The notes: generated from the sequence alone by a model not told the origin. Shown: positions 1,608-56,525, counted from the first letter of the stretch. The stretch is 64,000 nt of DNA from Patescibacteria group bacterium (GCA_041651015.1 JBAZKA010000001.1:62000-125999); one strand, 5' to 3'. A program made the numbers and translations.

Positions 1608-3197
1608 ATGTCATTAAAACATCGTCCCGTCGCTTTGATTATCATGGATGGCTGGGGAGTGGCGCCGGACGGCGAGGGCAATGCCATTGCCAAAGCCAAA
1701 ACCCCGCGCCTGGATGAATTCAAGAAAAATTACCCGGTCATGACCTTGACCGCTTCGGGCGCCGAGGTTGGTTTGTCGTTTGGCGAGATGGGCAATTCCG
1801 AAGTCGGGCATTTGAATATTGGCGCCGGGCGCGTCTATTATCAAACTCTGCCCCGCATTGACACTGACGTACGGAGCGGCGCTTTCCTAAACAATCCCGC
1901 GTTTTTGGCTGCGGCCGAACACGCGAAAAAAAATAAATCAAATTTGCATTTGATCGGCTTGGTTTCGGCCGGTAAGGTTCATGCCAGCGATGAACACTTA
2001 CATAAATTATTGGAGTTTGCCAAAAAAAGCGGTTTGTCCAAACAAACTTATGTTCATGCTTTTCTTGACGGACGCGATACGATTTTTAATTCCGGAAAAT
2101 ATTTTATTGAAGTATTGATTAAAAAAATGGAAGAGCTTAAAACCGGCCGGTTGGCGTCGCTGAGCGGACGGTATTGGGCTATGGACCGGGACAACCATTG
2201 GGATAGGATTGAAAAAGTTTATAATATGATGACGACGGGCGAGGCCGAGCGCACGGCGATTGACCCGCTTCAAGCGATTGACGGCGCGTATGCCAATAAA
2301 AATTATGATGAAGAATTTTTGCCCACAGTCCTAACCGATAAGAACAATAAACCGATTGTCACCATCAAAGAAAATGACGCCGTGATATTTTTTAATTTTC
2401 GTCCGGACCGGGCGCGAGAACTGACCAAGGCTTTTGTTTTGCCCGAGTTTGATAAATTTACCCGCGCGCCAATTAAAAATTTATTTTTTGCCACCATGGC
2501 CGAATTTGAAAAGGACCTGCCGGTGGACAAAATAGCTTATCCGCCCGTGGTAATCATAAACGGTTTGGCGGAAATAGTCAGCCGGGCCGGGCTTAAACAA
2601 TTTCACATCGCGGAAACCGAGAAATACGCTCATATCACTTTTTTCTTGAATGGTACACGCGAAGAACCATTTCCGGGAGAAGATAGAAAAATTATTCCTT
2701 CGCCCAAAGTTTCCTCATACGACCAACAGCCGGAAATGTCGGCGCGCGATGTGGCCAAAGAAACAATCAAAGCGATTGAGAGTGGAAGTTATGATTTTAT
2801 TGCCGTGAATTTAGCTAATTCCGACATGGTCGGGCATACCGGTAATTTGGACGCGACCATCAAAGCTTCGGAAACGGTGGACACTTGTGTTGGGGAAATC
2901 GTGGACCATGTGTTGGCCAAAGGCGGCGCTATCGTAATTACCGCCGACCACGGCAATGGTGAAGAAATAATAAATTTGCAGACCGGTGAGATGGATAAAG
3001 AACACTCCACCAATCCCGTGCCGTTATTTGTCATCAGCGCGGATTTGCTTGGTCAAGCCGGACCGGCGGGCGACCCGCCGGAAGGGGACTTGAGCTTGAT
3101 GCAACCGGTGGGAATTTTAGCCGATGTCGCCCCGACTGTTTTGAAAATGTTAGGATTAGAACAACCGCCGGAAATGTCCGGGCAGAGTTTGGTATGA
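1608..3197 (+). CDS. gpmI: iPGM paralog, copy 2 (tandem with copy 1, about 45-50 percent identical by eye)
   Basis: 529 aa; the same MDGWG, TASG, DGRD, ADHGN motifs are retained, so both copies look catalytically intact. Confidence 0.85.
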   Translation: MSLKHRPVALIIMDGWGVAPDGEGNAIAKAKTPRLDEFKKNYPVMTLTASGAEVGLSFGEMGNSEVGHLNIGAGRVYYQTLPRIDTDVRSGAFLNNPAFLAAAEHAKKNKSNLHLIGLVSAGKVHASDEHLHKLLEFAKKSGLSKQTYVHAFLDGRDTIFNSGKYFIEVLIKKMEELKTGRLASLSGRYWAMDRDNHWDRIEKVYNMMTTGEAERTAIDPLQAIDGAYANKNYDEEFLPTVLTDKNNKPIVTIKENDAVIFFNFRPDRARELTKAFVLPEFDKFTRAPIKNLFFATMAEFEKDLPVDKIAYPPVVIINGLAEIVSRAGLKQFHIAETEKYAHITFFLNGTREEPFPGEDRKIIPSPKVSSYDQQPEMSARDVAKETIKAIESGSYDFIAVNLANSDMVGHTGNLDATIKASETVDTCVGEIVDHVLAKGGAIVITADHGNGEEIINLQTGEMDKEHSTNPVPLFVISADLLGQAGPAGDPPEGDLSLMQPVGILADVAPTVLKMLGLEQPPEMSGQSLV

Positions 3198-11717: not shown

Positions 11718-11801
11718 GCGCGGGTGGCGAAACTGGTAGACGCGCTACTTTGAGGTGGTAGTGGACGCAAGTCCTTGGAGGTTCAAATCCTCTCCCGCGC
11801 A
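11718..11801 (+). tRNA. tRNA-Leu (anticodon GAG), type II with long variable arm
   Basis: Acceptor GCGCGGG/CCCGCGC, D-arm GCGAAACTGGTAGACGC, anticodon stem CTACT/GGTAG with loop TTGAGGT (GAG), T-loop TTCAAAT, long variable arm; CCA not encoded. Confidence 0.85.
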
Positions 11802-13087: not shown

Positions 13088-14854
13088 TTAATTTGTGACT
13101 TTCGCCGATGCAGCCGAGCCTTGGTCCTCGTCCAAAAGTTCATTGGTGACAGCCCCATTCGTCAAAGATAGTTGCTTGCCCACCACATCGTCCTCGGCCG
13201 TGAAAGAAGCAGACTTTACCAATTGAATTATCTTACCGAGTTGAGAAGCGTTCGGAGTCACCGCCACTTCAAAATATAAACCGATTTTCCCATTGGCCGG
13301 CGCCAGATTATAATTCCAGTTGATAGCGCCGGCATCAGACGTAATTTGCGTACCGAGTGTGACGCTTTCTTTGCCGGTAAATTCCACGCCGTCAGCGAGA
13401 ACGGCCGAGAAATTATTTTTGGCAATGGCATTGATGCTGTTTTGTATTTCCACAAAAATCCAGTATTTGGTGGTCTCGCCCACGGTCGGGGGCAGAGGCC
13501 CGCGCCCCAGCTGATCGCCATCGGGCGTGTAATAAACCGGCTTGATTACCCACGAGATTTGCGTGGCTAAGGGCAAACGAATCACATCCGCGCTCTCAGT
13601 GGTTAATTTTTGCCCCGGCATGTCCGGCAGTTCGGCCTCGGTTTTCATCTTGATTTCCATTTGCGAGGCATTATCCGTGGTAAAAAAAGATTTGAGTTTT
13701 AATTTAATTTCAAATTCATCCGACGCGCCGGCCGTGCCATTGCCCAGAGTGGTGCGAGTTTTTTTGTCCGCGACAAGCGTCTGGCCATCAACTGTTAAGT
13801 TATTTTCGCGGGCCGTGGCCGCGAGGTCAACCGTACCCGGGGTGGGAGTAATAATTATCCGAACGTTGTTCAACTTATATTCACTCGCGTTATGCCAATA
13901 TATTCGGAGCGGTATAGTACTGTTCGCGTCAGCATAGGCGCCTGTGTAATTTGACTGCAAACCAGCTTCAACTTTTGGATAAATCACATTTAATTTTTTT
14001 TCCAATGTGAGCAAGCTGAAGGTTGAATTGTTTATGAGAATATTAAAATTAAATTTTTGCATTGATTCTCCGGACGCGGTCGGGGAAGTGACAACGCCGG
14101 CAATGGCTTTGGTTTCACCCGGTTCAAGAGAAATGCCGTTCAAAAGTTTGCCGCTGGCAAAATTTTTGGATTGTTCCGGTGAAATGGTAATGTTTCCCAA
14201 ACGAGTTTGCCCGATATTTTTCAGGGTGAGAGTGGCGGGAATTTCTCGTCCCGGGAAGGTAGATGTGGGCAGGTTGATATCGGCTTGTAAGATTGAACCA
14301 ATAGTCTTGATCATAGCTGCGCCGATTTTTTGTTCGGCGGATGATTTGTTTTCGGGTTTGTAGGTGAGGTAGGCGATAACTTTTTGGTCAATATTTGACT
14401 CGGCAAAAAGCGTGCCCTGAATTTCCAATTGGCCGGTGGCCCCGGGTTTAATTTCACCGATATCGGTCGTAAAATTTTCCGACAAAGTTGCTGTTGGAGT
14501 TTTTGCGCGGTCAATTACAAATCCGCTCGGCAGGTGAACGGCGAGAATGGTATTATTCAAAATCTGTTTGCTTCGGTTGGTATATTCTAATTTTATTGTG
14601 ACCGGGTTACCGCTTAAAATTCGTTCGTTGCCAAAGGTAAAATTTAAATCAATCAGATCTGTGATGGTCGGTTTCCAAAAAAAGAAAAACAACGAAGCGC
14701 CCAGCAAAACAATTGCGGACGCGAGCAGTATTAAATCAAAAGCAAAGAGTTTTTTCGCGTGATGATAAATCCCGTGATAGCGAGTGTGATAGTGGTGTTT
14801 GAGAAATTTAAGCATAGTGCTTCTATTATACCAAAAGCGACAAAAAACCGCCAT
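13088..14854 (-). CDS. Membrane-anchored surface protein with repeated beta-sandwich (DUF11/CARDB-like) modules
   Basis: 588 aa; single N-terminal TM (LILLASAIVLLGASLFFFFW) followed by Thr/Asn-rich repetitive beta-strand-like sequence. Confidence 0.5.
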   Translation of the reverse strand: MAVFCRFWYNRSTMLKFLKHHYHTRYHGIYHHAKKLFAFDLILLASAIVLLGASLFFFFWKPTITDLIDLNFTFGNERILSGNPVTIKLEYTNRSKQILNNTILAVHLPSGFVIDRAKTPTATLSENFTTDIGEIKPGATGQLEIQGTLFAESNIDQKVIAYLTYKPENKSSAEQKIGAAMIKTIGSILQADINLPTSTFPGREIPATLTLKNIGQTRLGNITISPEQSKNFASGKLLNGISLEPGETKAIAGVVTSPTASGESMQKFNFNILINNSTFSLLTLEKKLNVIYPKVEAGLQSNYTGAYADANSTIPLRIYWHNASEYKLNNVRIIITPTPGTVDLAATARENNLTVDGQTLVADKKTRTTLGNGTAGASDEFEIKLKLKSFFTTDNASQMEIKMKTEAELPDMPGQKLTTESADVIRLPLATQISWVIKPVYYTPDGDQLGRGPLPPTVGETTKYWIFVEIQNSINAIAKNNFSAVLADGVEFTGKESVTLGTQITSDAGAINWNYNLAPANGKIGLYFEVAVTPNASQLGKIIQLVKSASFTAEDDVVGKQLSLTNGAVTNELLDEDQGSAASAKVTN

Positions 14855-14858
14855 GCGC

Positions 14859-15209
14859 TTATGACGGTTTTTGAGTATGTTTGGCGTTAGCTTTTTTAAG
14901 CGATTTCGGGTTGGGGGAGTAGAGTGGGTTTTTTATTTTCCACTTTTCCACATATTGCCCGATTCCCCGGCTGGCCATTTTATGTTTGATGGTGGTGTGT
15001 TTTTGCGACCACTTGACCAAGCTTTCAAAATTGATTTTGTAGCGTCCGGCCACGACCGCATAGGTGATTTCTTGAGAAGCGATTGCGCGGCGAACGGTCT
15101 GAGAATTTACTCCAAACAACTTCGCGGCTTCTGAAACAGAAAGTCGTATCATTTCACCCGGTTCCTTATTAGATTGAAAAACCATATTTGTATAGAGTTG
15201 TATATACAA
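14859..15209 (-). CDS. Small helix-turn-helix DNA-binding protein (excisionase/MerR-like HTH)
   Basis: 116 aa; LSVSEAAKLFGVNSQTVRRAIA is a canonical HTH; basic C-terminal tail. Confidence 0.5.
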   Translation of the reverse strand: MYIQLYTNMVFQSNKEPGEMIRLSVSEAAKLFGVNSQTVRRAIASQEITYAVVAGRYKINFESLVKWSQKHTTIKHKMASRGIGQYVEKWKIKNPLYSPNPKSLKKANAKHTQKPS

Positions 15210-15433
15210 ATTATAGCAAGTTTTGTATTTTTGTCAATACCTGCAGTGTATGCGGTTGCCATGCAATAATATGTTGGCCGTGATTGTATTATCTAACCGC
15301 TCACTACATTATATACTTGTTTATCAGGTATTTGTATATACTACTCTATACAAATATATCTAGATTTAGCTTATCTTAGCCAATACGGTATGTATTGCTA
15401 ATAGCAAGTTTGTATAGATAAGTATATACAAAG
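15187..15433. promoter_or_regulatory. Three palindromic operator-like sites: TTGTATATACAA (15199-15210) and two copies of TTTGTATA-N8-TATACAAA (15332-15355, 15409-15432)
   Basis: Perfect inverted repeats in the AT-rich 470-bp gap between the divergent HTH gene and the ECF sigma gene; the first overlaps the HTH gene start. Confidence 0.55.
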
Positions 15434-15559
15434 TTATGTATTTAATGAATAGTATGGTCGATGTTTGTTCTGTCCTTTGGTAATGGATGGAGGCGCGACA
15501 CGTTCGCATGATTTGTTTGCATTCGACAGGTAGGCATATTTGCATCGCATTAGATATAT

Positions 15560-15588
15560 TTGACACCCCTTCATAATTTTGATAAAAT
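15560..15588 (+). promoter_or_regulatory. Sigma70-like promoter upstream of the ECF sigma gene
   Basis: TTGACA, 17-bp spacer, TAAAAT. Confidence 0.45.
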
Positions 15589-15679
15589 GCACTCTATGCT
15601 TTATATATGTGACCGTGAGTTTTGCGGTCTTTTTATAAAGGGCAGGTGTAACATTTTTCCATAATCTACGTCTACTAAG

Positions 15680-16240
15680 ATGTCGGGAAAAATAACAGAA
15701 AAATTACTGTTGTACCGATTACAGACCAAACAGGATCCGGACGCATTTGCCGAACTCTATGATCTGTACGTAAAACGAATTTATCGGTTCGTTTTTTTTA
15801 AGGTATCCGGACACGAGGAAGCCGAGGATATTACGTCCGATGTTTTTCTCCGAGTTTGGAATTACATTGCCGAGGGCAAAGACATAAAAAGTTTTAGCGG
15901 ACTTTTGTATCGCACGGCGAGAAATTGCATCATTGATTTGTATCGTTCAAAATCATACCAAGCGAATCCGCTTTCCATATCCGAACTTCCAGAAGGAATT
16001 GAGCCGAGCGACTTGGGAGTGGCGGCCGATAAAATTACGGCCGGAGCCGATGCCGGTAAAATCATCGCTTCCATAAAAAGATTAAAACAAGAATATCAAG
16101 AAGTGCTTACTTTGAAATATGTTGACGAATTGTCCGTGGAAGAAATTTCCGAAATCACGGGCAAAGGAAAAATTTCGGTGCGGGTCACTCTGCATCGCGC
16201 GCTGAAGCGTTTGAAAATTATAATAGATACGAAGGTGTAA
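15680..16240 (+). CDS. ECF-family RNA polymerase sigma factor (sigma-70 regions 2 and 4)
   Basis: 186 aa; region 2 (YRFVFFKVSGHEEAEDITSDVFLRVW) and region 4 HTH (LTLKYVDELSVEEISEITGKGKISVRVTLHRALKRLK). Confidence 0.85.
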   Translation: MSGKITEKLLLYRLQTKQDPDAFAELYDLYVKRIYRFVFFKVSGHEEAEDITSDVFLRVWNYIAEGKDIKSFSGLLYRTARNCIIDLYRSKSYQANPLSISELPEGIEPSDLGVAADKITAGADAGKIIASIKRLKQEYQEVLTLKYVDELSVEEISEITGKGKISVRVTLHRALKRLKIIIDTKV

Positions 16241-16246
16241 AAAAGT

Positions 16247-17569
16247 ATGGCGAATAAATTGATCGGACAACTTAAAGATTTGAAACGTTCTGATGTGTCA
16301 CCGAGACCCGAGTGGTTAAAATCCAGTCGGGCGCGCTTGCTGTCTCAGATCAAAAATACCGTGCCGACTGAAGAATTGGGTGTGTTGGATAATTTATGGT
16401 TTGGTTTGTCAATTTTAATGCCGCAAAAATTTGTTTTTAATTTTGTCCGTCCTCTGGCCGTACTACTTATAGTGGCTCTCGTCGGCACGAGCGGTTGGAT
16501 TGCCACCGTGGACGCGGCTTATGAAGCTGTTCCGGGCGACTGGCTGTATCCGGCCAAACGCGCGGTGGAAAAAACTCAAATTACCACGGCGGTAATTATG
16601 GGCGCCAAGAACACTGAGACAAAATTGCATTCGGAATTTGCCAAACGCCGAGCCACGGAAATAAAATCCGTGATGAAAAGCGATATGACAGATAAAAACG
16701 AAAAAGTGACCACTGCGGTGTCTGATTTAAAAAATGAAATCAAATCAGTCAGCGATAATTTGGATGAATTAAAATCCAATGGCACGCAAGGCACGGCCGA
16801 GACTGCCAAAGCGGTGCAAAGCAATGCCGAGCAAATTAAAGTTGTGTTGACGGAGATTAAAGATGATTTGAATACCGGCACCTCAACTTTGGAAACAAAA
16901 GTAATGGCCAAAGAAATCGGCGAGGCCAAGGATTTAACCAAAGACGCCAATATAAAGGTGGTGGAAGTTTTGATTGCCAAACATTTGGATGGTGATGTCA
17001 CTAAAGAAGAAGTGACGGCGGCCATTGACAAGACCATGCAAAGCGCGGTGGACGAAGCCAATGTCACCCAGCAAAATGTGCAAAATATGAACACGGCCGT
17101 GACTGCGGCCGGAGCTGTGCCGGGTGTGACCGTGTCATCCAGTCCATCAACCGAAACGATTGGTAGTGTGGCCTCAACCACTGGTGCGGCTGCGGTGAAG
17201 ACTCATGAAGCGGCGGCCGAACTCGGCAAACAAGTGACTGAAATTAAAAGCTTGGTGGAGAGTGGAAATTTGACCGATGCGGTTAATATAATGAAACAAG
17301 CCAATGAAACCAGCAAAGAAATGGATAAATTGCAGGATACCACTTTAGTCGCGGCCCAGACTGTTTTGCCGACTCCGGTGGTAAACGAAGTAAAAAATTC
17401 CACCACAGAAGTGGCGCAAACCATCGGAGCGTCAACTACGATTCAAGTGATTGTGTCCAGCACAACCCAAGCGACTGAGCCGGGTAAATTGCCGGTGACT
17501 GTTATTGTCACCACCACGCCGGCGTCATCCAGTCCGAGCGCGACAGTGTCAAGTACGACGAAGAAATAA
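16247..17569 (+). CDS. Candidate membrane-spanning anti-sigma factor / DUF5667-like protein
   Basis: 440 aa directly downstream of the ECF sigma (7-nt gap); cytoplasmic N-terminal ~60 aa, one TM, long Thr/Ala/Val/Lys-rich coiled-coil-like extracytoplasmic region. Confidence 0.4.
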   Translation: MANKLIGQLKDLKRSDVSPRPEWLKSSRARLLSQIKNTVPTEELGVLDNLWFGLSILMPQKFVFNFVRPLAVLLIVALVGTSGWIATVDAAYEAVPGDWLYPAKRAVEKTQITTAVIMGAKNTETKLHSEFAKRRATEIKSVMKSDMTDKNEKVTTAVSDLKNEIKSVSDNLDELKSNGTQGTAETAKAVQSNAEQIKVVLTEIKDDLNTGTSTLETKVMAKEIGEAKDLTKDANIKVVEVLIAKHLDGDVTKEEVTAAIDKTMQSAVDEANVTQQNVQNMNTAVTAAGAVPGVTVSSSPSTETIGSVASTTGAAAVKTHEAAAELGKQVTEIKSLVESGNLTDAVNIMKQANETSKEMDKLQDTTLVAAQTVLPTPVVNEVKNSTTEVAQTIGASTTIQVIVSSTTQATEPGKLPVTVIVTTTPASSSPSATVSSTTKK

Positions 17570-17824
17570 TAAATTGTTCCTCGTTTTTTCTGAATAAAAA
17601 ATTTGTTCAGAAAAAAGAGAGAGTAATTTGTTTATTAGGTCTTTGTAAAGGTCGAGGGATCATGAGATCTCACCTAGATCTCTGTGTAGCGGGGACGCGC
17701 GGTTCCGACTATTTCTTTAGAAATAATCCGGACTGTGCGAAAACCGCTTAGCCCGTTTTCCGTTGACGTTAGTCCGCCAGCCGGTGGACTGATGCGCATC
17801 GGGCTCGGGTATATAATATTTATT

Positions 17825-20800
17825 ATGTACAACGTTATTAAGAAAGCTTTAACCTTCAGCGTTGTTGCCTCTACCATGTTATGGTCTGTTGGTATCGCCG
17901 CTTTGATCCCGTCTGTGGCTCAAGGTGCGACCTGCCCGACTTTAGCTGCTGGCGACATGATCAAAGTGACCGGTAAAGCGGCCATCTATGCTCTTCGCAA
18001 CGATCTGAAAGTTGTGTATTTCCCGTCAGGTGACGAGTTCAAGTCTTGGAGGCCGACCTATGGTGGTTACATCTCCATCACTCAAGATTGCTTTGATTCC
18101 TTGTCGGTTCCGAGCAACTATCCGGCCGCGGTTGGCTTCCACCCGGGTTCTTACCTGGTGAAGAGACCGTCTTCGGACCAGTTGTATGTTGTTGAACCGA
18201 ACAACACCTTAGCTAAAATCACCAGCGCTCTCGCGACCACTTTGTATGGCACTTCTGCCTACTCTGATGGCGTTGGCGCCAAAGTGATGACGATCAGCGA
18301 TGTGTTCTGGCCGCATTATGTTAACCGCGGTACAGATATCACCACTGCCGTTGCCCACCCGGGTATGCTTTTCAAAGTCGACTCCACAACATACTATGTT
18401 GATGAAGACGGCAAACTTCGCGAGGTTACCGATGCCGGTTTCACCGCGAACAACTTCCAAAAGAAATTTGTCCGCACCCTTACGTCTACCGCTATTGCCG
18501 GTTTGACCGCTGGTACTGCTATCAGCGCTGAAATCGCGTCAGTCACGGACAAGACACAGAGCGGTGGTATCACTACGACAACTGCAGCGGGCACTTTGAC
18601 CGTGGCTTTGTCTTCCGCCACTCCGGGCGCTTTAAGCGTTCCGCAGAATGGCACTCGCGTTCCGTTTACCAATGTCGTTTTGACTGCCGGTTCGGATAAC
18701 GCGATCAATGTTGATGCTATCACTGTGAAGAGAACAGGTTTAAGTGATTATTCATATTTTGCCGGAACAGCTGGCAGTGTTTGGGCGGAAAAAGATGGTG
18801 TTCGCGTCACTTCTCAGTCTGATATGAACAGCTCTGATGAAGTGAACCTGACCTTCTCTCCGATCCTCAACATCCCGGCCGGCACTTCCGTCACCTTGGA
18901 AATCGTCGCCTCTTTGAACAGCGCTGCTGGTAACGGCGCCCTCGGCATTGCTTCCGCTTCTGCGGTGTCTGCCGGTGGTGTGACTGTTGCCGGTTCTTTC
19001 CCTGTGACCGGTAACTTGATGTCCTTCACCAGTTATAATGTGGCGACCGCTTCGGTTGATTATGATACCGCCACTCGTACTCCGAAGGTTGGTGACACAG
19101 CTGCTGAAATCTCCTCTTTTGGAGTGACGCAGACTGCCACTTACTCCAAGGATGTCATCTTCAAATCCATCATGTTGAAGAATTCCGGTGTTGAAGATTT
19201 GGCCACCTCTTTGTCCAATGTTTATTTGGAAAAAGCCGGCGCCCAAGTTTCTTCATACGGCACAATCAACGGTCGTTATATTACTTTCGTTTTGAATGGC
19301 GGCGGTCTCTTGATTGAAAAGGGAGACAGCCTTACCTTCAAGGTAAAAGGTGATATCATGGCCAAGGAAAATGCTTCAACCCCGAGCTTTACTTTCTATG
19401 TAAACAAGGTTGAAGACGTCAACATCGTTGAGAAATCAACCGGTTTTGGCGCCGCTGTCACCAAAGACGCGGATACCAACAATGTCGACATCACTTCCGG
19501 CGCGCTTTCTATCACTAAGAAAAGCACCCAGCCGTCTGATGCTGATGTCACCAAGGGTACCAGCGATACTGTTTCATTGCTCGCGAATATCCGCGCCGAT
19601 GAAGCCATCTCTGCCGATGGTATTAAAGTTGGTTGGGAAGGTACTTATGTATCCACTTCCTTCCAAAATGCCAAAGTGTACTTGAACAGTCATTTGCTCG
19701 GTACATTTGATCCGACGGACGAATCAGACACCAACTACGAAATTGAGACTTCTGTCAACTTTAATAAAGGCGACAATGAGCTCAAAATTATGGTTGGCGT
19801 CAAATCCACCGCCACTTCCAGCGCCAACATCAAATTTAAAGTGGTTGGTACTGAGTTTGTGAACGGTGAGTCCCCGGAATACGTTTCCTCCGGCAATTCC
19901 GTTGATTCCGACGATGTGAACGGCAGCCCGGTCGGTGCGATTATCACCGTGGCCGGCGCTGGTTTGACCATCGCGCGCAATGACGGTTATGCCGCGGATC
20001 GCAGCATTGTCCAGGGCACAACTGATGTTTCCCTCGGCAAATTCAATGTCAAAGCCACGAGCGATACAGTGACCCTCACTTCTATCGAAGTCGCGGCCAA
20101 CAGCGGTACCGGCACCAAGGTGTCTGATTCCTCTGTCTTTGACATGAAACTTATGGTTGACGGCGTCCAGGTTGGTACCACTCGAGATTTCAACTCCTCT
20201 GGTGCTTCCTTCTCTGGTCTCAATGTCTCCATTGCCAAGGATGCCATCAAATCAGTGGAAGTTGTTGCTTCCTTTGACACGATGTCCACCGGCTCCATCA
20301 AGACCGTCCTCTCCTTTAACGGCCAAGACAGCAATGGTAAGACGACCGGCTTGACCGGCCTTACTGGAACCACTGTCAACAACGTCGTTATCGCCGCGGG
20401 CGTTTTGACTGCCACTGCCGGTACCGATACTGCAGATAAATCCATCCTCCTCGCCAAGTCCGGTGTTGAATATTCTGTTGCGACCTTCAAATTGACTTCG
20501 CAATATGATTCCTCCAACATCACCGAAATGACTATCGTCAATTCGTCCACTTTGGCTTCGGATGCGAGAATCTCTTCCGTCAAACTTTATGACGGCAGCA
20601 CATTGTTGGGTACAGATTTTGTGATGAGTAACTCCACCACAATTTCATTGGACACCAACAGCCTGATCGTTCCGGCCAATGGCTACAAGAACGTGACCGT
20701 GAAGGTCGTCTTGAACACCATTGATGATGTCACCCAGAGCAGCAGCACCTTCCGCGCCAACTTGACTCAAATCAAGTACAAGGGCTCGGCTGGTTCAGAA

Positions 20801-21289
20801 CTCACCAAGTCTACAGATTTGTATGGCAATGTCATGCAAATCCGCAAGACCAGACCGGTGTTTGCCAATGTTTCTCTTGGCTCATCCGGCCTTGGCGCCG
20901 CTGAAGAAGAAGTGCTCAAGTTCACTGTCACTGCCGATTCCAACGAAGAAGTCGTGATCACCAGCTTGACATTTACTGAAGAGGGCTCTGTCACATCTTC
21001 GGTGTCAAACTTCAAACTGTATGTTGACGATTCGGAAAAGGCCTCGGTCACCAGTGGTGTTCCGACCTTCACCGGATTGACCAATGTGTCAGTTGCGGCT
21101 GGTCAAACCAGAACGTTCTCTGTCCGCGCCAACACCACTGGTGTTGCCGTCGACAAGACGTATGGCATCAGTTTGGAGAAAACCACAGTTGGTAATGTTA
21201 CTTGGGCCGAATACTTTGTCGGCGGTAACAATCCGGGTGATGCTGAGTACCTCAACACCTTCCCGATGTCCAACTCCAAGAAATACTAA
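17825..21289 (+). CDS. Giant secreted/surface protein with many Ig-like beta-sandwich repeats (ORF track starts at 17735; the Met at 17825 precedes the signal peptide)
   Basis: Signal/TM segment ALTFSVVASTMLWSVGIAALIPSVAQGA; over 1100 aa of Thr/Ser/Val/Gly-rich repetitive beta-type sequence. Confidence 0.6.
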   Translation: MYNVIKKALTFSVVASTMLWSVGIAALIPSVAQGATCPTLAAGDMIKVTGKAAIYALRNDLKVVYFPSGDEFKSWRPTYGGYISITQDCFDSLSVPSNYPAAVGFHPGSYLVKRPSSDQLYVVEPNNTLAKITSALATTLYGTSAYSDGVGAKVMTISDVFWPHYVNRGTDITTAVAHPGMLFKVDSTTYYVDEDGKLREVTDAGFTANNFQKKFVRTLTSTAIAGLTAGTAISAEIASVTDKTQSGGITTTTAAGTLTVALSSATPGALSVPQNGTRVPFTNVVLTAGSDNAINVDAITVKRTGLSDYSYFAGTAGSVWAEKDGVRVTSQSDMNSSDEVNLTFSPILNIPAGTSVTLEIVASLNSAAGNGALGIASASAVSAGGVTVAGSFPVTGNLMSFTSYNVATASVDYDTATRTPKVGDTAAEISSFGVTQTATYSKDVIFKSIMLKNSGVEDLATSLSNVYLEKAGAQVSSYGTINGRYITFVLNGGGLLIEKGDSLTFKVKGDIMAKENASTPSFTFYVNKVEDVNIVEKSTGFGAAVTKDADTNNVDITSGALSITKKSTQPSDADVTKGTSDTVSLLANIRADEAISADGIKVGWEGTYVSTSFQNAKVYLNSHLLGTFDPTDESDTNYEIETSVNFNKGDNELKIMVGVKSTATSSANIKFKVVGTEFVNGESPEYVSSGNSVDSDDVNGSPVGAIITVAGAGLTIARNDGYAADRSIVQGTTDVSLGKFNVKATSDTVTLTSIEVAANSGTGTKVSDSSVFDMKLMVDGVQVGTTRDFNSSGASFSGLNVSIAKDAIKSVEVVASFDTMSTGSIKTVLSFNGQDSNGKTTGLTGLTGTTVNNVVIAAGVLTATAGTDTADKSILLAKSGVEYSVATFKLTSQYDSSNITEMTIVNSSTLASDARISSVKLYDGSTLLGTDFVMSNSTTISLDTNSLIVPANGYKNVTVKVVLNTIDDVTQSSSTFRANLTQIKYKGSAGSELTKSTDLYGNVMQIRKTRPVFANVSLGSSGLGAAEEEVLKFTVTADSNEEVVITSLTFTEEGSVTSSVSNFKLYVDDSEKASVTSGVPTFTGLTNVSVAAGQTRTFSVRANTTGVAVDKTYGISLEKTTVGNVTWAEYFVGGNNPGDAEYLNTFPMSNSKKY

Positions 21290-22914: not shown

Positions 22915-24063
22915 ATGTTTTCCAAACCCAAAGGCTTTATCGGCGTTGACCTTGGCGCCGGCGGAGTCAAAATTGTTGAATTGCGCGAAGAAAAAAAGCG
23001 TCCGGTTTTGTATACCTATGCCCTGACTTCAGAGTCTCAGGATGTGCATCAGCTGTTGGCCGAAACCCGGGAAAAACTTTTGGCGCCGGAAGCTGTGCAG
23101 ATTGAACAAAAGCAAAATATCCGCGGAGATAAAAAGGCCGCGCCCATGGTTGACGCATCTGACGCCAGAGTACAAAAATACGCTGACACGCTTCATGCCG
23201 CCTGTGTCGCGGCCAAAACTTCATCCAAAATCGCGGTCGGAAGTTTGCCCGTGTCCGCGGTGTTTCATTCTATTGTCACCATGCCGGCGGTTGATGCCAA
23301 AGAATTTTTGGGCATTCTCAAGGCTGAAGTGAAAAAATTATTGCCTTATTCCATTGACGACATGGTTTTGGACTATCAGGTGTTGGAATCATTTTCCACG
23401 GATAAGGTCAAAAAAATAATGGTTAGCGCCGTGCCCAAAGCCATCGTGGAATTTTATTCAAAAGTTTTCCGCCGGGCCGGTTTGACCTTGGAATCATTAG
23501 AGCCGGAATCAATGGCCTTGTCGCGCTCGCTCATCGGCCGGGACCGCGCCGTCACCATGCTGATTGATATGGGCGCCGAGCGGACAAACTTTTTTATAAT
23601 TGATGAAGCCATCCCGATTACCAATCATTCTATTGAATCAGGTGGTAATAAAATCAATCGCTTGATGATGTCCACACTCGGGGTTGAAGAATCCGAGGTG
23701 CCACAAATCAAACACGACCTGTATCAGCGTTCGCTTGCGGGCAACGGCACAATTGACCGTAAAACATTTATTGATTTGCTTATGCCGGTCATTGATCCGA
23801 TTGTCAAACAAATTGAATACAGCTTTGGCGTTTATTTTAACCAAACGGGCAACGAACAAAAGAAGCCCGAGAAAATTATTTTGACCGGCGGTGCGGCCAT
23901 GGTGCCATATCTGGCGGAATATTTGGCTGATTATTTTAAAATTAAATGTTATTTGGGCGACCCGTGGGCGAGAGTAGTACATCAGGACAAATTACAACCG
24001 TTATTAAATGAGATCGGGCCGAGAATGTCTATTGCGATTGGTTTGGCGCTCAAGAATTTATAA
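22915..24063 (+). CDS. pilM: Type IV pilus assembly ATPase-like protein PilM (actin fold)
   Basis: 382 aa; N-terminus FIGVDLGAGGVKIVEL and overall PilM/FtsA-like pattern. Confidence 0.8.
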   Translation: MFSKPKGFIGVDLGAGGVKIVELREEKKRPVLYTYALTSESQDVHQLLAETREKLLAPEAVQIEQKQNIRGDKKAAPMVDASDARVQKYADTLHAACVAAKTSSKIAVGSLPVSAVFHSIVTMPAVDAKEFLGILKAEVKKLLPYSIDDMVLDYQVLESFSTDKVKKIMVSAVPKAIVEFYSKVFRRAGLTLESLEPESMALSRSLIGRDRAVTMLIDMGAERTNFFIIDEAIPITNHSIESGGNKINRLMMSTLGVEESEVPQIKHDLYQRSLAGNGTIDRKTFIDLLMPVIDPIVKQIEYSFGVYFNQTGNEQKKPEKIILTGGAAMVPYLAEYLADYFKIKCYLGDPWARVVHQDKLQPLLNEIGPRMSIAIGLALKNL

Positions 24064-24064
24064 T

Positions 24065-24469
24065 ATGTTAAAGAAAATTCATCAATCCGGTAAAATCCAA
24101 AGCGTCCTTCTGGTTGAATCAGATGAATTTCTGGCCGATATATACGCCAAGAATATTGAGATGGAAGGCTTCCGCGTGGTCAAGGCCGTCAACGGAGAGC
24201 GGGCGTTGGCTCAATTAAAAAATAAAGAAATTGACCTGATTCTTCTCTCGGCCACTTTGCCCGGCATGAATGGTTTTGAAGTGCTGGCTGAACTGAAAAA
24301 TGACAAGAAAACCGCGTTTATACCCGTTATTTTGCTGTCAAAACTCGGAGCCAAAGAAGACGTAGAAAAATCCCGCGAACTTGGCGCCGAGGCCTACATT
24401 ATTAAGTCGCATTTCCGTCCATCCGAGATTGTGGATAAAATTAAGAAAATACTATTCAAAAGGATTTGA
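24065..24469 (+). CDS. Stand-alone response-regulator receiver (CheY-like) domain protein
   Basis: Receiver pattern VLLVESDEF ... DLILLSATLPGMNGFEV ... PVILLSKLG; the ORF track start at 24008 overlaps pilM, and the ATG at 24065 fits. Confidence 0.7.
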   Translation: MLKKIHQSGKIQSVLLVESDEFLADIYAKNIEMEGFRVVKAVNGERALAQLKNKEIDLILLSATLPGMNGFEVLAELKNDKKTAFIPVILLSKLGAKEDVEKSRELGAEAYIIKSHFRPSEIVDKIKKILFKRI

Positions 24470-24523
24470 ATTTGGTATAATGTATCCAACTATGAAAAAC
24501 AACTATCGGAAGGGGGTGAATTT

Positions 24524-24970
24524 ATGAATAGGAAAGGTTTCACTTTGATTGAGTTGTTGGTTGTAATTGCCATTATCGGTTTGTTGTCCACTCTCTCGGT
24601 GGTCGCTTTGGGTTCTGCTCGTCAGAAATCCCGCGACTCCAAGCGTTTATCGGACTTGAAGCAGGTTCAAACCGCGTTGGAATTGTATTACACTGATAAC
24701 AACACATATCCGACCACGACCGTAACCCTCGGTACCACTGATGCCAAATGTTTGGGCACCAATGGTTTCCACGCCACAGGTGGTTGCTCGGGCACCACTT
24801 ATATGGGTCTTGTCCCGACCGAACCGACACCGGGAGGCACCGGTTATACGTATACCGGAGCGTCTACAACTTTCAGCATCACTGCCACGCTTGAGAGCGC
24901 GGTCAATGATTTACGCGCTGGAGGAATTATTGCTACGCAAAACGGTATCGTCAACGCTTCGTCCACCTGA
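24524..24970 (+). CDS. Type IV pilin / pseudopilin
   Basis: Prepilin leader and N-methylation site MNRKGFTLIELLVVIAIIGLL; Cys pair near the C-terminus. Confidence 0.85.
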   Translation: MNRKGFTLIELLVVIAIIGLLSTLSVVALGSARQKSRDSKRLSDLKQVQTALELYYTDNNTYPTTTVTLGTTDAKCLGTNGFHATGGCSGTTYMGLVPTEPTPGGTGYTYTGASTTFSITATLESAVNDLRAGGIIATQNGIVNASST

Positions 24971-24990
24971 TGATTTATAGGTCATAAAAT

Positions 24991-25026
24991 AAAAATCCTT
25001 CAGCCTCGTGTTGAAGGATTTTTATT
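24991..25026 (+). terminator. Rho-independent terminator after the pilin gene
   Basis: AAATCCTTCA-gcctcgtgt-TGAAGGATTT followed by TTTATT. Confidence 0.75.
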
Positions 25027-40576: not shown

Positions 40577-40650
40577 CGGGTCGGACGGGACTCGAACCCG
40601 CAACTTCCTCCGTGACAGGGAGGTGCTCTAACCAGTTGAACTACCGACCC
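40577..40650 (-). tRNA. tRNA-Asp (anticodon GTC)
   Basis: Sense strand GGGTCGGTAGTTCAACTGGTTAGAGCACCTCCCTGTCACGGAGGAAGTTGCGGGTTCGAGTCCCGTCCGACCCG; anticodon loop CTGTCAC; closely resembles canonical bacterial tRNA-Asp. Confidence 0.85.
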
Positions 40651-42258: not shown

Positions 42259-42287
42259 TTTACTTTTAACTTGCCGCGAAGCGGCGG

Positions 42288-42681
42288 TGGAGATGGCGAG
42301 AGTCGAACTCGCGTCCAGATGGCCACGCCACAGCCGTCTACATGCTTAGTTCTCTTATTTTTAACCAAACTGTATTCAGAGAACGAAAATTCGTTTGGCG
42401 TGCCGGCTTTGCCTTTCAATTACTTCACCTCCGGCTCGGTTGGTAATCTACGCCTGATGATTTGCGCCGCGTTTAGTTACCAGGTGTGGCTAAGGCGACG
42501 GAAGCGGCAATTAAGCCGCGACAGGAGCAAAACTCATCGCCGGGCTAAAAGCTCGAGCAATGGATGTTTTGACTTTTGAAAATAAGTTGGCACTTATTAT
42601 TTGGTCCATGTATTTACGAGGGTTGGACCGACCTCGGCATGCGAACTATAACGCCGGTCTCTGTCAAAGCCCGGCATCCCC
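42288..42681 (-). ncRNA. ssrA: tmRNA (ssrA)
   Basis: Minus strand starts GGGGATGCCGGGCTTTGACAGAGACCGG... and ends ...GGACGCGAGTTCGACTCTCGCCATCTCCA (tRNA-like T-arm and acceptor). A candidate tag ORF beginning at nt 91 reads GCC AAC ... GTC GCG GCT TAA (ends ...FAPVAA-stop). Lies 2 nt downstream of the smpB stop. Confidence 0.85.
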
Positions 42682-50848: not shown

Positions 50849-51086
50849 ACCTACCTTTTTCGGGTGACAGAAAGAATATTCGCATCATTCCGCGAATATC
50901 TGTTGCCCTCCCAATTAACATCCTGATATTTGTCGGGGTGTTTGAGGAAATTAGTTCATTAAAATTCAAAGGTAAAAAATATTTTCATGCAATTTGCGTC
51001 CTTGGTCGATCACCCGAATGATTCGGATGACGCCAAAGGACGTAAACATTTGCGCGTGAATGCGCAACGAAAAAAAGGAAAAGAAA

Positions 51087-52424
51087 ATGAAAAAGAATCT
51101 GATGTCCGTTCTGTTCTTGGTCGTCGTCCTCGGAGCCAACGTCTCCAGCGCCCAACAAATGTCGTCGGTGTCAAATGCCGATAAGTACTGGGCGCCCCAG
51201 GCCATCGCGAACAAAATGTTCGCCGAGGCCCTGTCGTCTCTGCAAACGCAGATGTTGGTCGTGGCGCCGGCCTGCGAAGCGGCAAAGAGCCAAAGCGCGA
51301 GCTGCACTGCGGCCATCAATCAGATGACCGGGCTGAACGAAACGGTTCAAAATACCGCGGCCAAGGTTCGTCGGCGCGACACCGGCCACTTCACGCCGGC
51401 CCAGGAGAAAAGGATCGTGGAGTTGGCGGCGACTGCAAACTCGGCGACCGAGTCAGCACTCATTAGTGCTGACCAAGGCAAGAGCGAGGAAGTTGTTCTG
51501 GCGGCCAAAGATTTGAAGTCCCGTATGGGCAAGTTGGAGGCCAAGGTCGGATCTCTGGATATGAGAGTGACTGACCACGATGAACAACTGGAAGGTCTCC
51601 AGGCAGCAGTGAAAGTGTTGCAAGACAGCGCGGTGGCCAAGGAAGATCCGGAGCTCGCCGAGCAACTCGCAAATCTTTCCGGGAACACAGCCTCAGCCGA
51701 CAAGCAACTCGCGGATCGGATTCTGCTCATCGCCGAACGAGTGCAAGTGATGGAAAACGCGGCCATGACAAAATCCGATTCCACGGTAGACAAGGCGCAA
51801 TTGGATGCGGCCATGAAAGAAATGGCCGGCGCGTTCAGTAGACGAGTCGCTTCGGTTGAGGCGAAGGCGGAAAACGCTGACGCCAAGGCGGAGCGGGCGA
51901 TGTCGCTCGCCCGGACAAAAAATTCCACCGCCATCATATTGGAGGTGGCGGGCATGGGCGGCGCCTGGTCGCCGTTCATTAAGCAAGTCACTTACGGCGG
52001 AGTCGGTGCCTACCTATCCAAGGGATGGTTGAGGCTCGGTGGTTCGTTTGACCCCGGGTTGGCCTATGTGGACGGGGAGGCGACGTTCGCGTTTACGAAC
52101 AAGCTGGAAGCCTGCTACGCGTGGAAATATGCGTGGCTTGGAGTCTTTAGCGGATCGTATGCCCTTGGCCTGCCGTATAGCGACTCGAACGAGAAGTATG
52201 GCTTCTCCTTCGGCGCAATCGCACGGTTCGTCCTCCCCATGGGCAACACCAACTGGTTTTATGGGTTGGAACTCTACGGAGGCCCGGCTTACGAATCCAA
52301 GTGGGTGCCCAAGGGTCCACCCGCGGGAGCCGCGCCCGGCGCGGTGTACGATGATGAAGAATACAAAACCTTCTTCAAACCGTTTACCGGCGGTGTGCGA
52401 GTATTCATCGATTTTAACCTTTGA
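51087..52424 (+). CDS. Secreted protein: signal peptide + long coiled-coil + C-terminal beta-rich domain (paralog of 53730-54818)
   Basis: ORF track from 51060; Met at 51087 gives MKKNLMSVLFLVVVLGANVSSAQQ; C-terminal alternating hydrophobic/Gly pattern ending GGVRVFIDFNL. Confidence 0.5.
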   Translation: MKKNLMSVLFLVVVLGANVSSAQQMSSVSNADKYWAPQAIANKMFAEALSSLQTQMLVVAPACEAAKSQSASCTAAINQMTGLNETVQNTAAKVRRRDTGHFTPAQEKRIVELAATANSATESALISADQGKSEEVVLAAKDLKSRMGKLEAKVGSLDMRVTDHDEQLEGLQAAVKVLQDSAVAKEDPELAEQLANLSGNTASADKQLADRILLIAERVQVMENAAMTKSDSTVDKAQLDAAMKEMAGAFSRRVASVEAKAENADAKAERAMSLARTKNSTAIILEVAGMGGAWSPFIKQVTYGGVGAYLSKGWLRLGGSFDPGLAYVDGEATFAFTNKLEACYAWKYAWLGVFSGSYALGLPYSDSNEKYGFSFGAIARFVLPMGNTNWFYGLELYGGPAYESKWVPKGPPAGAAPGAVYDDEEYKTFFKPFTGGVRVFIDFNL

Positions 52425-52681
52425 ACATTTATCCGGGCGCTTGAATAAAATCCGTATCCTACCTTTACGGAATCAAGCGCCCTCCTCACCTTTGAACATA
52501 AGATTTGTTTTCAGAGGCGAGAGAGAAAAAATATATCAAAAAACTCAGCCATAGCGGCCGAGTTTTTTGTTTGAAGTTTTGTATTTTTACTTTTCAGAAA
52601 ACTTGTGTTGCCACCAGTGTTCTGAAGAGCCGAGGACGAATTCGTGTGAGTGAATTCGTCCTCGCAAAGAGCTTGGCGCCA

Positions 52682-53113
52682 TCACGGCGCGTTGACGAGC
52701 GAGGCGCATTGGTCACGCCCGGGCGTACCGACCGAGCCGCAACACCAGTCAATGGCCTGCAACTCAGTGATGGCCGGCAACCCGCGAGCGGGTCGCGTCC
52801 GCGCTTCACGGAAGCAGGCGACGTACGCGACGTCGTCCGGGTTGACGGTCGCTGCTTGCGGCAGCACCGCGTTCGGTGCCGAAGAGGTTTTTGCCGCCGG
52901 GCAATCGCTGCCGTCGCAGTTGGTTTCGCGGGTAACCATCCCCTTGACATTGTTCATGTCGAGAACGAGTTTGGTGATGTAACGGTACATCCCCGCGTCG
53001 TAGAAGATGAACCCGAAAAGAATCACCGTACACGCCCAAGGGAACACTTTGAGGAACCTTTCCATTATGCTATCTCCTTTGTGTTGTTTGACTTTTGCCG
53101 TTTTTACAAACAC
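52682..53113 (-). CDS. Small membrane-anchored Cys-rich hypothetical protein (uncertain; high-GC region)
   Basis: TM helix FPWACTVILFGFIFYDAGMY then Cys-containing domain; competes with the overlapping plus-strand ORF 52505-53218, which lacks features. Confidence 0.3.
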   Translation of the reverse strand: MFVKTAKVKQHKGDSIMERFLKVFPWACTVILFGFIFYDAGMYRYITKLVLDMNNVKGMVTRETNCDGSDCPAAKTSSAPNAVLPQAATVNPDDVAYVACFREARTRPARGLPAITELQAIDWCCGSVGTPGRDQCASLVNAP

Positions 53114-53328
53114 CTCGCACCGCGCGAGATGTTCACGTTCAACGGCAAAAATTTTAAAGAACAGAATAATATATCACAAATTGGATTATTTGTCAAATGC
53201 CCCGGGCTCGGCAGATAGAGTGAGGGTCTTGCCCCCGTCACCAATAATAAACATCTATTTGCAGAAAAATCGTTACTGACGACGAGTAAATGCAATATGC
53301 AAATATATTCCCAAAATTGGTGAGGGGC

Positions 53329-53357
53329 TTGACAAAACCCTCAAAATGTGCTATACT
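53329..53357 (+). promoter_or_regulatory. Sigma70 promoter (family member 2 of 4)
   Basis: TTGACA, 17-bp spacer AAACCCTCAAAATGTGC, TATACT (TGc extended -10). Confidence 0.6.
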
Positions 53358-53363
53358 GGTTTT

Positions 53364-53470
53364 AATAAAATTCAAATTGACTTTGATTGCGCAACGAGAG
53401 AGGCGCGGTCAAAGCCCGAAAAAGCCTGAAATATATTTATCGGACTCTCTCATTGTAGAGAGTTTTTGTG
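53364..53470 (+). ncRNA. Candidate small RNA: promoter-proximal ~105-nt unit ending in a GAGAGAG/CTCTCTC hairpin plus T-run (copy 1)
   Basis: CGAGAGAGGCGCGGTCAAAGCCCGAAAAAGCCTG...CGGACTCTCTCATTGTAGAGAGTTTTTGTG, immediately followed by a second identical-type promoter; similar cassette at 57479-57600. Confidence 0.4.
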
Positions 53471-53498
53471 TAATATAAGCCAATCAGGAGGTAGAATG

Positions 53499-53527
53499 TT
53501 GACAAAATAGGCAAAATGTGCTATACT
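53499..53527 (+). promoter_or_regulatory. Sigma70 promoter (family member 3 of 4)
   Basis: TTGACA, 17-bp spacer AAATAGGCAAAATGTGC, TATACT. Confidence 0.6.
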
Positions 53528-53729
53528 TTCATGTTAAATTACAAACAGTTTTTCACCCAATCTTGCGCCTTCTAACAGAGCGGACGCAGGCAGAGTCAAA
53601 AACTCTGGCAGTGAAGCTCTTTTTACTTACAAGGCAGGAATAAAATAAAAAACGTTCGCTACAAAATGGCCGGCCACGGGTCGGTCAGGAAAGCCCTGGC
53701 TCATAGAGCGGGGCATAGGAGAGACGAAG

Positions 53730-56378: not shown

Positions 56379-56486
56379 CATGTTCTTTGAGCCTCGAATT
56401 CCTTTCGAGGTATATGCCCGGGCAGAGCTTATCTGCCCCAATCATATGGCATCATTTATCTCTCAAATGATCCCAGATGTAAACAA

Positions 56487-56518: not shown

Positions 56519-56525
56519 GAAAAAA

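Follow-up and report, generated by a model that had tools for sequence, protein, structure and literature searches.

Control elements of a conserved surface-protein locus in Patescibacteria: an HTH_17 regulator with probable palindromic operators, a probably autoregulated ECF sigma factor and a structured RNA leader

The locus and its conservation

The Patescibacteria (candidate phyla radiation, CPR) are a large, almost wholly uncultivated group of bacteria in which gene regulation is next to unknown. The window considered here is a stretch of 64,000 nucleotides (GCA_041651015.1 JBAZKA010000001.1:62000-125999) that comes from a genome of this group, probably from Ca. Magasanikbacteria; the same sequence also lies on a 91-kb metagenome contig in the ENA. 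Between 13.1 and 21.3 kb it carries five genes, encoding the membrane-anchored protein P588, a helix-turn-helix (HTH) regulator, an extracytoplasmic function (ECF) sigma factor, a DUF5667 membrane protein and a giant secreted protein (BIG). We hold with moderate confidence that this conserved neighbourhood comprises three separate control units, namely an autorepressed HTH gene, an autoactivated sigma operon that includes the membrane partner, and a giant protein gene transcribed by read-through and carrying a cis-acting RNA.

Conservation was assessed by scanning one genome per species, which gave 80 loci; most counts below are over 78 loci, mostly from Ca. Magasanikbacteria. In essentially all 80, the gene order is kept, with P588 and HTH read leftward and sigma, DUF5667 and the giant protein read rightward, the HTH and sigma genes being always divergent around a common intergenic region. 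Orthologues share 65-88% identity for the HTH protein, 41-78% for sigma, 25-61% for DUF5667 and 22-72% for the two large proteins. In the window, the HTH-sigma intergenic region (15186-15679) measures 494 bp at a GC content of 0.33, in agreement with the AT-rich regulatory region with palindromes described in the initial annotation, and the spacer between DUF5667 and the giant gene (17570-17824) measures 255 nt. The convergent cysS gene lies 3′ of the giant gene, and type IV pilus genes lie beyond it. A second contig (L002) was rejected as conservation evidence, its intergenic region being identical to that of the window.

The HTH regulator and its probable palindromic operators

The HTH gene (14859..15185, minus strand) is monocistronic and encodes a 108-aa HTH_17 regulator of the excisionase/MerR-like winged-helix type. 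The protein scores 35.3 bits against PF12728 HTH_17 (cut-off 27) and 32.8 bits against TIGR01764 (cut-off 28.8), which confirms the small divergent HTH gene noticed earlier. Among the 1215 homologues listed, the best 120 are 68-100% identical to it, and those that are named come from Patescibacteria or Magasanikbacteria. A core of 85 aa is nearly invariant; a C-terminal extension of ~35 aa is conserved as well, an effector domain is absent, and no related solved structure is found by sequence. The start codon is ATG 15185, TTG 15209 being the start of the mechanical open reading frame (ORF) only. A terminator scan finds an intrinsic terminator (14833..14872, minus strand) with a 12-bp hairpin (14872-14843) followed by a T-run, and an equivalent GC hairpin and T-run lie 3′ of the gene in orthologues. 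Because the HTH gene has its own terminator, followed in orthologues usually by a P588 promoter, it is taken to be monocistronic and P588 to be transcribed separately.

The predicted HTH promoter (15210..15237, minus strand) matches the consensus at 12 of 12 positions, with TTGACA (15237-15232), a 16-nt spacer and TATAAT (15215-15210) with TG in front. The 64 kb contain just three exact copies of TTTGTATA-N8-TATACAAA, at 15187, 15331 and 15409; the chance expectation is 0.03 per window, and none of 100 shuffles reached three copies. Two such palindromes had been described originally, together with a further one, TTGTATATACAA, said to overlap the start of the HTH gene. Their exactness stands; they number three, and TTGTATATACAA is the inner part of the first, which sits between the -10 box and ATG 15185. 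These 24-bp sites are designated operator O1 (15187..15210) and auxiliary operators O2 (15331..15354) and O3 (15409..15432), all of them exact matches. The first base of O1 is the last base of the -10 box (15210) and its other end lies 1 nt from the HTH ATG, so that O1 would span the transcription start and the whole short 5′ leader.

The same layout, i.e. -35 box, spacer, TGCTATA-type -10 box, palindrome and ATG within a few nt, is found in almost all orthologous loci, the TTGACA and TGCTATA-type boxes beside O1 being kept. The spacing between O1 and O2 is 144 bp here and mostly 75-121 bp in orthologues; that between O2 and O3 is 78 bp here, and orthologues cluster at 69 and 78-83 bp. The orthologous HTH-sigma spacers yield as consensus TTTGTATACACTAGTGTATACAAA, which is perfectly palindromic over its 24 bp; 76 of 78 spacers contain it with at most two mismatches and all 78 with at most three, and the palindromes of the window are thus conserved in orthologous loci. 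There are one to four sites per locus, usually two or three, and two to four in 70 of the 78. All 152 matches with at most one mismatch fall inside the HTH-sigma spacer, and none in the remaining ~880 kb. Between O2 and O3, the orthologous loci show no conserved element other than a weak TTAGCC-type motif. This motif (TTAGCC/GGCTAA, often GCTAA-N2-4-TTAGC) lies near palindromes in the window (15375-15384) and in many other loci, is enriched ~3-fold within 90 nt of palindromes (1.31/kb vs 0.44/kb), and may be the site of a second factor.

The recognition helix offers a link between protein and site. Its predicted first residue, Q29 in FGVNSQTVRRAI, is Q in 71 loci, which have TTTGTATA half-sites with G at position 6 in 10/366. 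Four loci of two sequence types (SSL, NPL) carry L instead, and TTTGTGTA accounts for 12 of their 18 half-sites; two loci carry A, and one of these shows TTTGTGTA-type half-sites in three of six. Counted by locus, the operator change from A to G accompanies a changed helix residue in 5/6 loci, vs 1/71 with Q (Fisher p = 1.8e-6). This co-variation supports the HTH protein as reader of the palindrome, and the position of O1 makes autoregulation the simplest reading; the identity of the binder and its action as a repressor are both predictions from sequence.

The ECF sigma factor and its promoters

The divergent sigma gene (15680..16240, plus strand) encodes 186 aa in which Sigma70_r2 and Sigma70_r4_2 are the only domains. 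The protein reaches 81 bits against TIGR02937 sigma70-ECF (cut-off 43), and its best specific model is that of the BldN family (TIGR02952), at 110.9 bits, below the cut-off of 206.45. Two predicted promoters precede the gene. Promoter P1 (15560..15588, plus strand) is of the sigma-70 type and matches the consensus at 11 of 12 positions (TTGACA, 17-nt spacer, TAAAAT); by reading, a P1-like TTGACC-N17-TAtnAT is found ~70-110 nt upstream of the sigma ATG in many orthologues. The second is an ECF autoregulatory promoter (15647..15672, plus strand), TGTAAC-N16-CGTC, with CGTC 7 nt from the sigma ATG. It occurs in 76 of 78 loci, and the 75 orthologous instances from which a weight matrix was built have one and the same spacer length (16 nt) and distance to the start codon; their consensus is AAGTGTAACAtTTTT..TTTTTaCGTCTTCTATAATG. 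The assignment as an ECF sigma factor made in the initial annotation is thereby upheld, and the gene has a promoter of the classic autoregulatory kind. Between the two promoters, the terminator scan finds a terminator-like hairpin with a T-run in the P1 leader (15611..15634, plus strand), whose equivalent is seen, by reading, only in the closest relatives (L005, L008, L016 and L024). It may act as an attenuator, or as an insulator, leaving sigma expression dependent on the ECF promoter.

Searches for further targets of sigma were negative. In the window, the weight matrix finds no ECF promoter other than sigma's own, and in ~930 kb of orthologous loci it returns the 75 self matches and no others. 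Upstream of the giant gene or P588 there is none by exact pattern, with one mismatch or by weight matrix, so that the check suggested at the outset, a search for ECF-type promoters within 17590-17825, comes out negative. The nearest operator is distant from both sigma promoters: on their upstream side, O3 ends 128 bp short of the P1 -35 box and 215 bp short of the ECF promoter.

ECF -10 elements usually lie at such a distance from the transcription start that the sigma mRNA would begin at or next to the A of ATG, and this transcript is thus probably leaderless. Start codons hug -10 elements at other genes of the locus too, with CGTC-N7-ATG for sigma, TATAAT-N9-ATG for P588 and TATAAT-N7-ATG for the giant gene, and Shine-Dalgarno sequences are for the most part missing. 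Messages with no leader, or hardly any, may be frequent in the lineage.

The DUF5667 membrane protein

The next gene (16247..17569, plus strand) begins 6 nt past the sigma stop, in the same frame, and encodes a single-pass membrane protein of 440 aa with a DUF5667 domain (PF18915), a candidate anti-sigma factor. In 40 orthologues, the best conserved parts are a 45-aa basic N-terminus, one hydrophobic helix and the juxtamembrane DUF5667 domain; the cytoplasmic N-terminus has the invariant residues P19, W23, R28, L31, Q34 and N37, the long helical region varies, and the protein ends in a Ser/Thr-rich tail. The AlphaFold2 (AF2) model, with a mean predicted local distance difference test (pLDDT) of 68, places two short helices at the N-terminus, followed by a transmembrane helix (60-83) and a helical bundle (101-373). 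A Cys or His motif of the H-x3-C-x2-C type found in zinc-binding anti-sigma (ZAS) proteins is absent from residues 1-60, and a literature search found no paper mentioning DUF5667. The proposal of a membrane protein with a long helical ectodomain and a candidate anti-sigma role thus stands for its first part; for the second, position and topology fit, and a recognisable anti-sigma domain or fold match is missing. On the strength of this context, we lean slightly towards DUF5667 being the anti-sigma factor of the ECF sigma.

The structured leader of the giant gene

The 255 nt that separate DUF5667 from the giant gene form a much more stable fold than shuffled controls (minimum free energy z = -7.5). 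The leader hairpins seen at the outset belong to a structured, conserved RNA; the description of the leader as GC-rich applies to its core only, with 0.54 at 17640-17810 vs 0.43 over the whole 255 nt. Neither 17570-17824 nor the intergenic region has a match in Rfam 15 at gathering thresholds, permissive searches giving chance-level microRNA or small nucleolar RNA hits. Right after the DUF5667 stop comes H0 (17580..17623, plus strand), a long hairpin whose 3′ arm is a conserved purine tract, GGAGAGAGAAAA. Of the 53 loci examined, essentially all have H0 and 48 have the purine tract. No U-tract follows H0 in these loci, where purines or mixed sequence are found instead; canonical U-tract terminators do exist elsewhere in these genomes.

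Downstream of H0, the RNA motif M1 (17635..17686, plus strand) consists of a stem (P1 of the RNA), a 9-10-nt 5′ bulge, AAARGUCGA, and a hairpin (P2). A covariance model, R1, built on 24 sequences with an anchored seed, gives one match in each of 56 sources, all on the coding strand between DUF5667 and the giant gene; the match in the window reaches 49 bits (E = 2.6e-10). In M1, 83% of cells are paired vs 36-56% in slid registers, compensatory changes are found for 15 of 15 pairs, and frequent G-U pairs fix the strand. A plain MAFFT alignment with RNAalifold had recovered only P2, with P1 misaligned, and was replaced by the anchored seed and covariance model. A K-turn reading of the bulge was rejected by inspection, the non-bulged strand being without GA.

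M1 is followed by a variable hairpin (17689..17747, plus strand), whose counterparts in orthologues differ in sequence and length, and by M2 (17750..17809, plus strand), in which an outer stem P3 (AGCCCG/CGGGCT here) encloses UGAC...GCGCA boxes and a variable hairpin P4. The two boxes are invariant and pair with each other inside P3. The P3 duplex has an energy of -10.0 kcal/mol for arms of the same locus vs -5.2 for arms of different loci (p = 2e-18), and on a plain MAFFT alignment of M2 84% of cells pair, vs 36-62% in slid registers, with compensatory changes in 9 of 12 pairs. M2 is missing from some loci. An AT-rich stretch of ~15-25 nt, without a Shine-Dalgarno sequence, then leads to the giant-gene ATG. 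The conservation of specific unpaired sequences (AAARGUCGA; UGAC/GCGCA) points to a binding partner for the leader rather than to bulk stability. Between DUF5667 and the giant gene, 47 of the 53 loci contain no sigma-70-type promoter (at least 10/12), and the six matches found are scattered.

The giant protein and P588

The giant gene (17825..21289, plus strand) encodes a secreted protein of 1154 aa with a signal peptide, an N-terminal alpha/beta region and a chain of immunoglobulin (Ig)-like beta-sandwiches. Its family is restricted to Patescibacteria, with members mostly of 1.1-1.3 kaa, the named ones all being 'hypothetical'. No Pfam or NCBIfam domain is found in it, hence none of the S-layer anchoring type such as S-layer homology (SLH). 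The AF2 model has a mean pLDDT of 84, and Foldseek retrieves generic Ig-like chains only, for example PrgB, alpha-2-macroglobulin and cadherins. The giant beta-rich protein of the initial annotation is thus borne out, as a secreted protein of 1154 aa, and 'beta-rich surface protein' is a fair description as far as the predicted fold goes.

P588 (13088..14815, minus strand) is a membrane-anchored protein, probably of 575 aa starting at M14 (ATG 14815), the mechanical ORF extending to 14854 (588 aa); alignments with orthologues mostly begin at residues 9-17, and the N-terminus is a hydrophobic anchor. Its sole family match, a sub-threshold DUF11, hints at beta-sandwich content, and no relative is found in the PDB by sequence. 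The kinship with the giant protein claimed for it was rejected, since BLASTP gives E = 3.4 and thus no sequence similarity. An extended -10 promoter-like element, TGGTATAAT (14825..14833, minus strand), was read from the sequence 9 nt before ATG 14815, and orthologous loci usually show the HTH terminator, a TTGAC/TATAAT-type promoter and then the P588 start. In orthologues P588 usually has a putative promoter of its own, and nothing found here ties it to the sigma circuit.

A model of three control units and its rivals

In the first unit, the HTH protein bound to O1 would block its own transcription, a case of negative autoregulation. Through cooperativity or looping, this binding would probably gain strength from O2 and O3, which lie 144 and 222 bp farther upstream, and the protein probably has a few more sites with this palindrome elsewhere in the genome. 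In the second unit, the sigma gene would be read both from the housekeeping-type P1 and from its own ECF promoter, which amounts to positive autoregulation. The DUF5667 gene is probably translationally coupled to the sigma gene, and its product would most likely keep sigma at the membrane by means of the conserved cytoplasmic N-terminus (45 aa), release following upon an extracytoplasmic signal. In the third unit, the giant gene is most likely transcribed by read-through past H0 from the sigma operon, because it has no ECF promoter and no recognisable sigma-70-type promoter, H0 has no U-tract and real terminators are present in these genomes; taken by itself, we give read-through a chance slightly below even, with an undetected promoter as the main alternative. 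The structured leader would then affect, in cis, how the giant-protein message is processed, how stable it is or how it is translated; by its length, H0 could be a substrate for RNase III.

The model put forward in the initial annotation is that of one ECF envelope-stress circuit in which the operators gate the sigma operon and sigma directly activates both surface-protein genes. It draws on the presence of the five genes together in ~80 genomes, on the adjacency of sigma and a membrane partner, and on the divergent HTH and sigma genes with their common intergenic region. We consider it quite unlikely, since neither the window nor the ~930 kb of orthologous loci has an ECF promoter upstream of the giant gene or P588, and P588 orthologues usually have their own sigma-70-type promoter. 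The giant gene could be an output of sigma by co-transcription at most. Nor are the operators where this circuit would place them: the palindromes do behave as operators in their distribution, with O1 on the HTH promoter and O3 at 128 bp from the P1 -35 box and 215 bp from the ECF promoter, not on the sigma promoters. For the third unit, the alternative is that H0 terminates the sigma operon and that the giant gene has an unrecognised promoter of its own, formed by TTGAC, GCGCA and TATAAT-like boxes at the DNA level, its mRNA being possibly leaderless and the 'leader' being a DNA control region or a separate small RNA. The conserved TTGAC does resemble a -35 box, TATAAT lies 7 nt before the ATG in the window, other genes of the locus appear leaderless or nearly so, and H0 is very stable. 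However, TTGAC is 40-60 bp away from the AT-rich box, the consensus fold has TGAC paired with GCG, the U-tract of real terminators in these genomes is missing after H0, and stems P1, P2, P3 and P4 covary with G-U pairs that fit the coding strand only, which argues for a transcribed RNA. We therefore regard a separate promoter of this kind as unlikely.

Two further explanations concern the palindrome, for which loci outside the conserved neighbourhood are informative. An exact search of metagenome contigs with the 24-bp consensus gives 94 loci, 50 of which show the HTH/sigma context. In the other 44, homologues of both genes are missing from up to 14 kb of sequence; neighbours there include RmuC (16), an O-antigen-ligase/tetratricopeptide-repeat (TPR) membrane protein (7), a DksA-type zinc-finger protein (6) and, more rarely, a carboxypeptidase (3) or a tyrosine recombinase (3). 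Within 300 nt of the palindrome, these 44 loci are enriched in perfect DnaA boxes (1.16/kb vs 0.07/kb elsewhere, 16-fold) and in parS-like sites (1.62/kb vs 0.05/kb elsewhere), and no such enrichment is seen in HTH-context loci. In the HTH-less ones among metagenome loci L083-L176 (e.g. L166:4960-5140 and L093:7400-7560), the palindrome is usually part of a module with DnaA boxes TTATCCACA, a DnaA-like box TTATACCCA and a parS-like site TGTTTCACGTGAAACA. Despite these boxes, the loci were rejected as oriC, and are not demonstrably replication origins, because the GC skew does not switch sign (-/+) in any of the 15 palindrome loci with 2 kb or more on each side. As a control, viral contigs scanned with a degenerate 16-base pattern gave 120 single chance matches with random spacers, none of them within two mismatches of CACTAGTG.

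The extra sites are equally consistent with a small HTH regulon that includes the DnaA-box/parS module and with another factor. The palindrome could accordingly be read by another DNA-binding factor that is widely conserved, such as a nucleoid-associated or replication/segregation-associated protein, with the HTH gene as one target among others; the exact consensus in 44 of 94 metagenomic loci, beside DnaA boxes and parS-like sites, speaks for it. We accord this a small probability, given that in almost every genome the site lies between the HTH -10 box and ATG, the classic layout of autoregulation, that the recognition-helix residue co-varies with an operator base, and that a few extra targets are common for small regulators. 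Least credible by far is the view that HTH_17 is the excisionase (recombination directionality factor) of an integrated mobile element and that the palindromes are recombination or arm-type sites. It is suggested by the label 'excisionase family' in source annotations and by a tRNA gene (11718-11801) only 3 kb off, and it conflicts with the lack of an integrase in the neighbourhood, with a chromosomal context fixed in ~80 species at 65-88% identity, with the HTH gene's own promoter and terminator, and with sites that are inverted repeats on a promoter, not direct repeats by an att site.

Several observations weigh against the reading of three control units. Every transcription start in it is a predicted one, and the case for read-through is argued from absences of a U-tract and of a promoter, so that a promoter for another sigma factor or one that depends on an activator would escape detection. 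With 44 metagenomic loci carrying the palindrome and no nearby HTH gene, another protein could read it; no promoter accompanies O2 and O3, and O1 is the only site in a few loci. The correlation between residue and operator rests on about three independent lineages, the loci being phylogenetically non-independent, and one A-variant locus (L028) retains A-type operators. As to DUF5667, the N-terminal part of its AF2 model is of low confidence (pLDDT 48-67), no solved fold matches the model significantly (helical-repeat matches only, best E = 0.09), the N-terminal 95 aa of the window protein have no Pfam match even at E up to 10, and no anti-sigma Pfam family is found in the DUF5667 proteins of four orthologues. 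Finally, an amino-acid permease gene is likewise syntenic, and because gene order is thus conserved well beyond the cluster, synteny alone is a weak sign of functional coupling.

A bolder extension of the three control units can be envisaged, which we regard as doubtful. The HTH_17 protein would be a lineage-wide master regulator in Patescibacteria of the Magasanikbacteria type that reads the palindrome at its own promoter and at a handful of loci, most often DnaA-box/parS-like modules by rmuC, and is coupled to replication or segregation; independently, H0-M1-M2 would represent a new class of cis-regulatory RNA that senses a protein or ligand and sets the production of the lineage's major surface protein.

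Relation to known systems

The autoregulated promoters of sigma X, W and M of Bacillus subtilis have an 'AAC' -35 and a 'CGT' -10 element, and TGTAAC-N16-CGTC directly upstream of the sigma gene in 75 genomes resembles them. The differences are that the -10 element here lies 7 nt from the ATG and that the DNA examined contains no second regulon member. Long structured 5′ untranslated regions are found on abundant S-layer genes, e.g. slpA of Lactobacillus and Thermus, and a 255-nt highly structured region before a very large secreted protein gene is similar in kind. It differs from them in that there is no sign of S-layer formation by the giant protein, that specific unpaired sequences are conserved and that Rfam has no match.

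The closest parallel for sigma and its partner comes from Streptomyces, where BldN is an ECF sigma factor with a membrane anti-sigma, RsbN, and controls the chaplin and rodlin surface proteins (PMC6101532). BldN is the best specific model for the sigma factor described here, a single-pass membrane partner is encoded beside sigma, and a surface-protein gene is the likely output. Like RsbN, the partner combines a short helical cytoplasmic part with a large extracytoplasmic domain and has no similarity to classical anti-sigma domains, so that RsbN provides a precedent for a single-pass anti-sigma without a recognisable domain (PMC6101532). However, the score of 111 bits falls short of the cut-off of 206, the output gene has no ECF promoter of its own, the DUF5667 segment before the membrane measures ~60 aa (with the conserved 45-aa N-terminus) vs 117 aa, and the two proteins show no relation in sequence or fold. 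For the HTH protein, BldC and RdfS offer the comparison: they are small, share the HTH_17/TIGR01764 domain and have no effector domain, and on direct repeats they form multimers in head-to-tail arrangement (PMC5859096, PMC11963761). Cooperative multimers are suggested here as well, by the presence of several sites in each target region. Unlike the BldC site, that of the HTH protein would be a perfect 24-bp inverted repeat, and the score against the BldC model NF033787 is 16.3 bits vs a cut-off of 77.

A literature search on regulation in Magasanikbacteria and on ECF sigmas in Patescibacteria found nothing relevant. Each part of the locus is of a known kind, i.e. an autoregulated small repressor, an autoregulated ECF sigma factor with a membrane partner, and a structured leader. 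What is new is an extremely conserved pairing of regulator and putative operator in an uncultivated lineage, with a palindromic site vs the direct repeats of characterised relatives, an ECF promoter in a leaderless layout, DUF5667 as a candidate type of anti-sigma factor, and an undescribed RNA motif. The value of the locus lies in a concrete entry point rather than in surprise. It offers a regulator-operator pair that can be tested in vitro (a protein, a 24-bp site and a predicted specificity-switching residue), an ECF promoter consensus for the lineage together with evidence for leaderless key mRNAs, and a candidate anti-sigma type and an RNA motif tied to the gene of a large surface protein, which is the molecule likeliest to mediate contact with a host or the environment.

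Other features of the window

The type IV pilus cluster past cysS (window 22915-25000, plus strand; L001 17236-20183) encodes PilM, a response regulator, an N-methyl pilin and a prepilin peptidase, and is a second surface apparatus near the locus. GC skew is monotonic in the window, and the window region shows no enrichment of DnaA boxes. RNA genes comprise tRNAs at 11718-11801 (plus strand) and 40577-40650 (minus strand) and a tmRNA at 42285-42681 (minus strand, 143 bits); the first tRNA is 3 kb away from the HTH gene, with no sign of an integrase or an island boundary. Two tandem paralogues (39-1313 and 1620-2885, plus strand) resemble cofactor-independent phosphoglycerate mutase and are 35-37% identical to a metagenomic homologue, which adjoins a palindrome in L115.

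Blocks with a GC content of 0.55-0.60, vs 0.44 elsewhere, occur at 51000-60500. Their large ORFs have no family or only sub-threshold matches to Cys-rich proteins of the epidermal growth factor (EGF)-like or disintegrin-like types (54927-56378, 57776-60490), and a methyltransferase and an O-antigen-ligase-like gene (60694-62214) lie nearby; the blocks may represent a set of Cys-rich secreted proteins or acquired DNA. As to the sources of the orthologous loci, many of the L003-L082 genomes have been deposited as 'uncultured Gammaproteobacteria' or 'Candidatus Udaeobacter' despite their Patescibacteria-specific cluster, and these labels are probably placeholders or mis-binned records.

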